The translations under genes were made by a program, and so were the position numbers. The notes beneath the pieces are model-generated. The model made no database searches and was not told the origin of the DNA. It saw only the letters and a list, made by a program, of their open reading frames with translations. Shown here piece after piece: positions 2,966-4,336 of a stretch of DNA of 15,851 nucleotides. Each line of letters begins with the position of its first letter. The stretch's first letter is position 1. This stretch comes from a virus (taxonomy: Duplodnaviria > Heunggongvirae > Uroviricota > Caudoviricetes). Where the stretch lies: IMG/VR virus record IMGVR_UViG_2684622669_000012, positions 1-15,851 of that record. One strand, given 5' to 3'.

Positions 2966-3055
2966 GGAGAGATGCCGGAGCGGCTGAACGGACCGGTCTC
3001 GAAAACCGGAGTGGGGGCAACTCCACCGGGGGTTCAAATCCCCCTCTCTCCGCCA
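2966..3055 (+). tRNA. serU: tRNA-Ser (anticodon CGA), 90 nt with long variable arm and CCA end
   Basis: GGAGAGATGCCGGAGCGGCTGAACGGACCGGTCTCGAAAACCGGAG...GGGGGTTCAAATCCCCCTCTCTCCGCCA; anticodon loop CT-CGA-AA; matches E. coli serU from memory. Confidence 0.9.
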
Positions 3056-3107
3056 AAATTCAATCACTTACACATCATTAAGTCAGTGACAAAAATCACA
3101 CTTGGAA

Positions 3108-4133
3108 TTACTTGGAATATTTTCTTGGAATATTTTCAGGTAACGGGACATCAAGTGTTGGTGAAACTTTAACCTTCCTGTCATAGATTAGCACTTGCCC
3201 TTCGGTTTTGTGACCAGAGAAAAGTTGCTTATCCCGGCTGCTTCCTTCATAGTCTGAAATTCCTTTCGCCTTCAGATCATGAAAGGTGAAGTCGGTTAAA
3301 ATACCTGAAATTTTGCCTGCGCGATTTCTTGCTTCTACCCACATTTCGTTAAAGCCTTTGTACATATATCGGTTGCCGTATTGATTGCTGATTACATAGG
3401 CGGATGTAGGTAACTGTTTTGCTTTTTCGATCGCCGCCTGTAATCGTGGACTCCATGCTTTTATCTGTTTTTTCCCTGTTTTCCCTTGCTGGATAAAGAT
3501 CCCGTCGTTTCCAATCTGCTCCCATTTCAGCGATAACACATCGGAAACCCTCGCTGCACACAGATAGGCAATTTCCATTGCGATAAAAACAGGAAGAGGT
3601 GCAACGCTTAATACTGCCTGGTATTCTTTGTCGGTTACATATCGTTCGCGGTTTTTGGCCTTGAATTTACTTACACCTGCACATGGGTTAGCCTTCACGT
3701 ATCCTCGCTCATACCCCCAACTGTAAACGCGGGACATACTGCTTTTTTCATGGTTGGCTTGCGTTTTACTCTGTTCCCCTCTCTTGTCCATGTATCGACG
3801 GACGTGTTCTGGTTTTATGGAATCTGCCGGCACCTTACCGAATACGGCAAGCAACTTTTTTTGATGTTGCAGATAATCTTTTTGTGTTCTTGGACTGAGG
3901 TCACTGTAATAGGCGCTGGCGAGGAATTTTTCCCACAAGCGACCGAATGTCATTGCACGATCGCGATTATTTACAGTTTCCTCATACTTTTTCCATAAAG
4001 CAGCTAAACCATCCTTGATGGCGGTTAGTGTGACAGATTCTCTGGATGTTGGTTTCCATACATAACTATATTTGTTTGGGTATACATTTGGAGGTAGTTT
4101 TTCGTGTTCAGGATTTTTCCTTCGTCTTCCCAT
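3108..4133 (-). CDS. int: Tyrosine integrase, lambda Int family
   Basis: 341 aa; N-terminus MGRRRKNPEHEKLPPNVY resembles lambda Int MGRRRSHERRDLPPNLY; C-terminal half has the tyrosine-recombinase pattern (R..HDLKA....Y). Start ATG overlaps the xis stop (TGATG). Confidence 0.9.
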   Translation of the reverse strand: MGRRRKNPEHEKLPPNVYPNKYSYVWKPTSRESVTLTAIKDGLAALWKKYEETVNNRDRAMTFGRLWEKFLASAYYSDLSPRTQKDYLQHQKKLLAVFGKVPADSIKPEHVRRYMDKRGEQSKTQANHEKSSMSRVYSWGYERGYVKANPCAGVSKFKAKNRERYVTDKEYQAVLSVAPLPVFIAMEIAYLCAARVSDVLSLKWEQIGNDGIFIQQGKTGKKQIKAWSPRLQAAIEKAKQLPTSAYVISNQYGNRYMYKGFNEMWVEARNRAGKISGILTDFTFHDLKAKGISDYEGSSRDKQLFSGHKTEGQVLIYDRKVKVSPTLDVPLPENIPRKYSK

Positions 4134-4336
4134 CAGATTGCACCAAAATTCGGCTCTACCTCGCGTGGTGGTAAAGTTTTATTGCAGGTAAATAGATCCC
4201 GGCTGACAATCGGTTTGCCACTGCGATTGGTATAGAACGGAAGCCCATTTTCCATTAACCATTTTCGCTGGTGGCTTGCATATTTGCAGCCCGTTAATAT
4301 TAGCAATTCATCTTCGGTTAAAAATAAGCTGCTCAT
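4133..4336 (-). CDS. Putative excisionase / DUF4224-like small protein
   Basis: 67-aa ORF directly upstream of int and translationally coupled to it; sequence type (..LTGCKYASHQRKWLMENGLPFY..) recalls the small proteins found in front of lambdoid integrases. Assignment is by position and memory. Confidence 0.6.
   Translation of the reverse strand: MSSLFLTEDELLILTGCKYASHQRKWLMENGLPFYTNRSGKPIVSRDLFTCNKTLPPREVEPNFGAI

Follow-up and report, generated by a model that had tools for sequence, protein, structure and literature searches.

Genes and attachment sequences at serU

The window analysed here is the whole of a 15,851-nucleotide stretch of viral DNA (IMG/VR record IMGVR_UViG_2684622669_000012). 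This account concerns its positions 2966–4336, where a prophage end adjoins the tRNA gene serU and is followed by genes for an integrase (int) and a probable excisionase (xis). serU, the gene for tRNA-Ser(CGA), lies on the plus strand at 2966–3055 and was identified with ARAGORN and Rfam. It folds as a cloverleaf, of the same shape as the allele of Escherichia coli K-12. Positions 3056–3133 (plus strand) form the P′ arm of attL, the left attachment (att) junction. This is phage DNA between the att core and int, and it enters the 3′ end of int. The arm departs from the bacterial B′ flank directly after the CCA end of serU, and past that point the two have only a degenerate TCAAT.ACTTA in common.

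The int gene (3108–4133, minus strand) encodes a lambda-type heterobivalent tyrosine integrase of 341 residues. It reads toward the tRNA, as the initial annotation stated, but the end that adjoins serU is the 3′ end of the gene and not its start: the stop codon TAA is at 3110–3108, leaving the 52 bp (3056–3107) already noted between it and the CCA end. The Pfam matches (PF00589, PF22022 and PF14659) comprise Phage_integrase, Phage_int_M and a SAM-like N-domain, with PF00589 found at E 2.5e-11, above its gathering score, and the protein belongs to PHROG 1 'integrase'. Using phmmer, residues 1–313 align to the lambda Int structures 1Z1B and 5J0N. No Pfam model for an arm-binding domain passed E 0.01 on Int; such a domain is supported by the pairwise alignment with lambda Int, which runs from residue 1 (MGRRR…LPPN.Y). 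The initial annotation had allowed that the gene might be a truncated remnant of an unrelated island. This was rejected on the basis of the full-length alignment to lambda Int and of the 341-residue form, which is by far the commonest, being present in 72 of 80 related loci.

The catalytic residues are R195, K218, H285, H308 and Y317, and the position of the second arginine (Arg II) is occupied by K288, in the sequence FHDLK. The K288 codon is at 3270–3272 of the window. Arg I, the β-hairpin Lys, His II, His III and Tyr are kept in this Int and in 113–119 of the 119 full-length representatives examined. In the Arg II column, Lys is found here and in 80 of the 119, and Arg in 37. Judged by this alignment, the lysine is a clade-wide conservative variant and not a loss. 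A lysine-bearing integrase of another clade, Y-BPP1, is active in vivo in Pseudomonas putida (PMC12884075), and the idea that Lys at Arg II marks an inactive integrase was rejected for these two reasons.

Immediately upstream of int, at 4133–4336 on the minus strand, is the probable xis gene (recombination directionality factor), which encodes 67 residues. The protein matches PF13986 (DUF4224) with E 1.9e-15 and PHROG 1266 'excisionase' with E 3e-21. The small protein next to int thus falls in an excisionase family, and on these matches it is probably the excisionase. A PDB sequence search with the 67-residue protein gave no match, similarity to lambda Xis was not detectable, and a literature search found no experimental paper on DUF4224. 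The AlphaFold model has a predicted local distance difference test (pLDDT) score of 80 and a strand-helix-helix-hairpin order, the underlying alignment being shallow (8 close sequences from the homologue search). Its top Foldseek neighbours are RacA, BldC, MerR N-domains, Pukovnik Xis and Tn916 Xis, all with E >0.4 and a template modelling (TM) score of ~0.4, which is consistent with a winged helix of the MerR/Xis type but not significant. The reading of the xis stop and int start as an overlapping TGATG (4131–4135, minus strand) was correct: the xis TGA at 4135–4133 and the int ATG at 4133–4131 share 1 nt. This overlap suggests that xis and int may be translationally coupled.

The att identity block, or core, is 62 bp long and extends from the second base of the anticodon stem of serU to the CCA end (2994–3055, plus strand). 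It is common to attL, attR, attP and attB. The initial annotation held that the core cannot be delimited, which is true of the window taken alone but no longer so once related lysogens, the empty site and attP-type junctions are compared. One such lysogen is E. coli SCU-115 (locus L001), in which the Int protein is identical and the attL region is identical over 2940–3180. Its prophage at serU, 41 kb long, has head genes of the HK97 type, tail genes of the lambda type and cdtABC as cargo. The last 62 bp of this prophage are an exact direct repeat of 2994–3055 (L001 44264–44325), the duplicated serU-derived core that had been predicted for the far end, and this is followed by a K-12 type flank, the same flank that is found at the unoccupied serU of K-12.

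Viral contigs were also scanned for the junctions. In 37 IMG/VR contigs the P arm leads into the same 62-bp block, and the core/P′ junction was found at 85 loci. In eight attP-type junctions the P′ arm is joined to the P arm, the order in these contigs being tail-fibre genes, P arm, core, P′ arm, int; they are either the phage form or tandem lysogens. Their existence implies that this integrase family recombines. An element-borne 3′ part of the tRNA gene that regenerates serU, with a displaced fragment at the other end, is likewise seen in relatives with the same int. At the far end of the present prophage, the P arm/core junction would be expected to read …CTTGGAATA…TATTCCAAG…GTATCAT|CGGTCTCG.

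A free attP was also looked for in a phage collection. The search hit only ON470580 and ON470583, prophage predictions with host DNA in them, and the junction in both was attL. These two GenBank 'phages', vB_EcoM-606R7 (ON470580, L003) and vB_EcoS-689R5 (ON470583, L002), carry mtfA, tRNA-Asn and a yersiniabactin salicylate synthase gene, and look like prophage predictions rather than packaged genomes.

The chromosome into which the element is inserted can also be assigned. Over cbl and nac the flank shares about 79% identity with E. coli, and overall (1–2965) about 79–88%. The source records of the exact MtfA protein name Escherichia albertii; a scan of species representatives found no MtfA match above 89%. 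Six E. albertii loci match the flank at 99–100%, their 10-kb flanks ending before attR, and in a wider pattern scan for attR among viral contigs, none was flanked by E. albertii DNA. On these sequence comparisons the host chromosome is that of E. albertii.

On the basis of these observations, we interpret 2966–4336 as the attL junction, with the integration module, of a temperate lambdoid phage that has inserted into serU of E. albertii, with a probability of about 0.85. The Int, DUF4224 and lambdoid early-region evidence agree on this, as they do with the earlier description of a lambda-family prophage at serU with an overlapping xis-int pair. Several points weigh against it. The attR junction is demonstrated in relatives, and the far end of the window's own prophage lies outside the window. 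A literature search found no binding or recombination experiment for this integrase, and the replacement of the second catalytic arginine (R311 of lambda Int) by lysine could, taken alone, suggest reduced activity. The fold comparison for Xis does not reach significance (best Foldseek E 0.44). The allele rule described below is violated by a single attL and a single attR junction. Finally, promoter and terminator scans of 2900–4500 did not exceed chance, as judged against shuffled sequence, and are uninformative on int expression. No claim is made for a lambda pI-like promoter near int, as the scan counts over that region were not above those of shuffled sequence.

The strongest alternative is that the element is a decayed, immobile remnant with a fossil junction, in which int and xis have stayed intact by chance. 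The visible part of the element is just 12.8 kb, other E. albertii strains carry versions at the same site that are disrupted by insertion sequences (IS) or truncated (L194, L196), and the lysine at Arg II could be read in the same sense. We nevertheless consider it unlikely. The window has open frames for int, xis, the 813-residue exonuclease, the CI-type repressor, the YdaS/YdaT-type proteins and DUF977; E. coli has copies of the identical Int protein; and attP-type junctions exist for this phage family. The lysine is shared across the clade, and the other five catalytic residues are kept. This copy may still be inducible.

Repeats at the 3′ end of int

A set of direct repeats (3098–3140) spans the last part of int and the adjoining P′ arm. 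The sequence CTTGGAAT(A/T) occurs three times within 3101–3132, starting at 3101, 3111 and 3124. The heptamer TTGGAAT, at 3102–3108, 3112–3118 and 3125–3131, and the two copies of GGAATATTTTC, at 3114–3124 and 3127–3137, are present in the numbers that the initial annotation gave. A 13-nt unit TT[A/T]CTTGGAATAT is duplicated at 3108–3133, and the exact 9-mer CTTGGAATA has two copies in the 15.9-kb window, both of them in this tract. It had been proposed that the repeats create a repeated C-terminal peptide. This is not the case: the period of 13 nt means that the copies are read in different frames, and the first copy overlaps the stop codon and is only partly coding. The Int tail translates as ...PLPENIPRKYSK followed by the stop (..PENIPRKYSK).

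We suggest instead that the repeats are arm-type Int sites. Three probable sites can be marked on the plus strand: P′-a (CTTGGAATT, 3101–3109), which overlaps the int stop codon; P′-b (CTTGGAATA, 3111–3119), within the last int codons; and P′-c (CTTGGAATA, 3124–3132), which is part of the 13-nt unit, variable in copy number among relatives. An exact CTTGGAATA occurs four times in the 50 kb of the SCU-115 locus, where sequence length would predict about 0.4 copies. Of the four, two are in the P′ arm (3111 and 3124) and two in the P arm, one direct (44152, plus strand) and one inverted (44216, minus strand), and all four lie no more than about 115 bp from the core ends. Among divergent phages, P-arm homology begins at the distal CTTGGAATA copy, and both P-arm copies are conserved in the 18 P-arm variants compared.

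The same layout is found in relatives. In serU elements of Citrobacter and Salmonella arizonae, which encode a related Int (with FHDLK), three copies of TTGGTATA stand at the same offsets (+47, +58 and +71 from the CCA end), all three having changed in concert by one base. This triple repeat, with the same P′ layout, was seen at L125, L126, L136, L148 and L166 (Citrobacter spp. and Salmonella arizonae). Further related arms (…TCAGTGAC… or …TCAACGAC…) occur at serU in many other Enterobacteriaceae. L041 has a divergent P′ arm, in which adjacent bases have altered but the TTGGAAT heptamers have not. The consensus for integration host factor (IHF), WATCAANNNNTTR, has five matches in the 50 kb of the SCU-115 locus, of which three are at attR: one in B′ directly after serU (44329–44341), and two on the stretch that separates the core from the P-arm repeats.

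This arrangement is that of the lambda attP, and it is for this reason that the repeats are read as arm-type sites. In this sequence comparison the motif is distributed over both att arms, away from the core, and is both conserved and changed in concert. The three P′ repeats are thus most likely binding sites for Int.

The 13-nt unit is itself polymorphic. It is present once in four loci (L054 and L111 are examples), twice in most, and three times in two (L069 and L097). One, two or three units give an Int of 345, 341 or 360 residues with differing tails, the 345-residue form ending in ..PSNSKCDFCH and the 341-residue form in ..PRKYSK, and the number of TTGGAAT sites alters with them. This variation accounts for the 'frameshifted' label given by RefSeq to the SCU-115 int, with its end at 3083; the 341-residue integrase is intact, although automatic annotation sometimes describes it in this way. 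In lambda Int, the tail after the catalytic tyrosine regulates cleavage. One could therefore imagine the unit TTTCTTGGAATAT (3108–3133) as a slippage-prone switch, setting both the number of P′ sites (two, three or four) and the Int tail. Such a switch could tune the frequency of integration and excision in a heritable yet reversible way. The observed part is the polymorphism, and we regard the switch as a speculation with little chance of being right.

It is also hard to see the repeats at 3098–3140 as meaningless products of replication slippage, or as code for a repeated peptide, with no role in recombination. Their overlap with coding sequence, and the one, two or three units found among relatives, as slippage produces, would fit. 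This view is nevertheless very improbable, because the 13-nt period yields no peptide repeat and the same 9-mer recurs only in the P arm, some 41 kb away, in both orientations, with its distal copy at the border of P-arm conservation. The concerted one-base change at constant offsets, and the retention of the heptamers in L041 while adjacent bases vary, also speak against it, and in favour of arm-type sites.

The crossover and its G-C marker

Within the identity block, two positions in the variable-arm stem (3013–3024, plus strand) distinguish phage from host. The window has G3013 and C3024, whereas native serU has A-U. An A..T is found at these positions in serU of K-12 and of more than 50 Enterobacteriaceae species, and also in a strain of E. 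albertii whose serU is occupied by another element. G..C was found only where the P′ arm of this phage follows, and in no unoccupied serU. Both alleles fold into the same cloverleaf, the G-C pair being compensatory.

The two alleles are partitioned between the junctions. At attL, 74 of 75 junctions have G..C and one has A..T; at attR, A..T is found in 22 of 23 and G..C in one; and all eight attP-type junctions have G..C, none A..T. The phage allele therefore segregates with attL and the host allele with attR, from which it follows that the crossover takes place 5′ of 3013, inside the identity block, and that the 3′ part of serU in lysogens derives from the phage. On this sequence evidence strand exchange must be confined to 2994–3012 (plus strand), the anticodon stem-loop, which holds the anticodon loop CTCGAAA (2998–3004) between the inverted stem halves CGGT and ACCG. 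The census thus places the crossover in or next to the anticodon loop. Cleavage within the 7-nt loop itself may be suggested by analogy with anticodon-centred att sites, a recognised and common class among tRNA att sites (PMC4383910). The idea that G..C is a mere host allele of serU, uninformative on the crossover, can draw on SCU-115, which has it in both attL and attR, and on the single attL with A..T, but it is hardly credible in view of its absence from every serU without this P′ arm and of the counts for the attP-type and attR junctions.

The census also implies that serU in the window is a chimera, with a host 5′ part (2966–2993) and a 3′ part supplied by the phage. The prophage boundary is now set accordingly: phage DNA begins within serU, between 2994 and 3012, and not past the tRNA gene. 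The G-C pair at 3013/3024 provides a simple marker of a serU rebuilt by this phage family.

Taking these elements together, and by analogy with lambda, integration may be envisaged as follows. The phage attP would carry a 62-bp copy of the 3′ two-thirds of serU, and the lambda-type Int, with its N-terminal arm-binding, core-binding and catalytic domains, would exchange strands in the anticodon stem-loop at 2994–3012. This would rebuild the tRNA gene by joining a 5′ part from the host to a 3′ part from the phage, the latter marked by G-C at 3013/3024, and the host 3′ fragment so displaced would come to lie beyond the window, at the far end (attR). The expected attR would read …CTTGGAATATTC…(~55 nt)…TATTCCAAG…, then GTATCATCGGTCTCGAAAACCGGAGT, the rest of the serU 3′ part with A..T, and the E. 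albertii chromosome. The three P′ repeats at 3101–3132 would bind the N-terminal domain of Int, their overlap with the last int codons and the stop being incidental. Two further copies, a direct and an inverted one, would be supplied by the P arm, as seen in related lysogens, where they are interspersed with two IHF-consensus sites that would bind IHF. The 67-residue DUF4224 protein would bind as the excisionase for excision.

Distribution, neighbouring genes and comparison with known systems

Of 5426 complete E. coli genomes, 1095 (about 20%) have the arrangement mtfA-serU-int-xis, O121, O145 and O26 strains among them, with identities up to 98.1% and no genome of the 5426 above this figure. 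The P arm was found in 909 genomes, always in the chromosome. Copies of the int-xis module from E. coli, Shigella and E. fergusonii show 97–98% identity to the one in the window, and the exact Int protein is present in both E. coli and E. albertii. With an E. albertii flank on one side and an E. coli-like int-xis module on the other, it would appear that the same integration module circulates across species, moving among E. coli, Shigella and E. albertii; in pathogenic strains serU prophages bring toxins and effectors. That serU is a recurrent integration site, as the initial annotation stated, agrees with our serU survey and with its documentation as a prophage site in Shiga toxin-producing E. 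coli (STEC) O145:H28 and O121 (PMC7067040, PMC10673567). The best E. coli matches cover 63–80% of the window from 4400 to 15851, and by this comparison the cargo and late regions are mosaic.

In SCU-115, the cdtABC genes (type I) lie just inside attR (L001 41825–43925), and the stretch from attR to zinT lacks yodB. Another element family, unrelated to this one, is also found at serU. Its arm begins ATCATTCAACAAAATCAATCACTTACAAAG, and it stands in tandem directly after the P arm and core of the present phage. It was seen at L007, L010, L012, L016, L017, L025, L028, L118 and L198, and the copy in E. albertii CP043262 includes AlpA and H-NS-like genes.

On the host side, the window begins inside a tRNA-Asn gene (1–54), and another tRNA-Asn gene is at 1899–1974 on the minus strand (ARAGORN, Rfam). 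Between the first of these and cbl (907–1857), nac (355–630) is reduced to an open reading frame (ORF) of 91 residues with a LysR helix-turn-helix domain only. The yeeJ/CP4-44 region of K-12 is absent from the flank.

Beyond xis lies a lambdoid early region, with genes for an Exonuclease VIII-like protein of 813 residues, a CI-type repressor, YdaS- and YdaT-type proteins and DUF977, and a match to the small RNA DicF (8246–8297, minus strand). An ORF with an Ash/Rha domain (antirepressor-like) is at 7221–8072 on the minus strand, and matches to the C4 antisense RNA and to IsrK RNA (7833–7920 and 7945–8021, minus strand) lie over its 5′ part, which resembles known antirepressor modules controlled by C4/IsrK. 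A match to the sok antitoxin RNA (14041–14215, plus strand) suggests a hok/sok module within the prophage. This early region is in the window and the late genes lie beyond it; late genes are present in the SCU-115 relative.

It remains to compare the module with known systems. It resembles lambda in that Int can be aligned over its full length, including MGRRR..LPPN.Y, Arg I, the β-hairpin Lys, His II, His III and Tyr. The order att-int-xis is the same, with int next to the P′ arm and a small xis just upstream of int. Three direct arm-type repeats in P′ and, in relatives, two in P, with IHF-consensus sites between, complete the likeness. The differences are that Int identity is only about 20–25%, that lysine replaces R311, and that the Xis is a DUF4224 protein whose sequence cannot be related to lambda Xis. 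The arm motif is CTTGGAATA, and int has P′ sites overlapping its 3′ end. The target here is a tRNA gene with a 62-bp identity block; that of lambda is a 15-bp core located between gal and bio.

The serU prophages of STEC, namely those of O145:H28, which carry effectors, and the Stx phage of O121, use the same integration site (PMC7067040, PMC10673567). The present element differs from these and other E. coli serU prophages in its E. albertii host and in the mosaic composition of its cargo and late regions.

There is also a correspondence with the anticodon-centred (class A) elements of Williams 2002 and Islander. As in these, the block extends from the anticodon stem to the tRNA gene's 3′ end, the tRNA is restored, the displaced 3′ fragment is found at the other end, and tandem arrays occur (PMC4383910). 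The serU element is a typical member of this class, without substantive difference. The left end of a serU prophage with a lambda-type int and a probable xis is thus an ordinary feature of an already known kind, and its importance is little beyond that of a good annotation.

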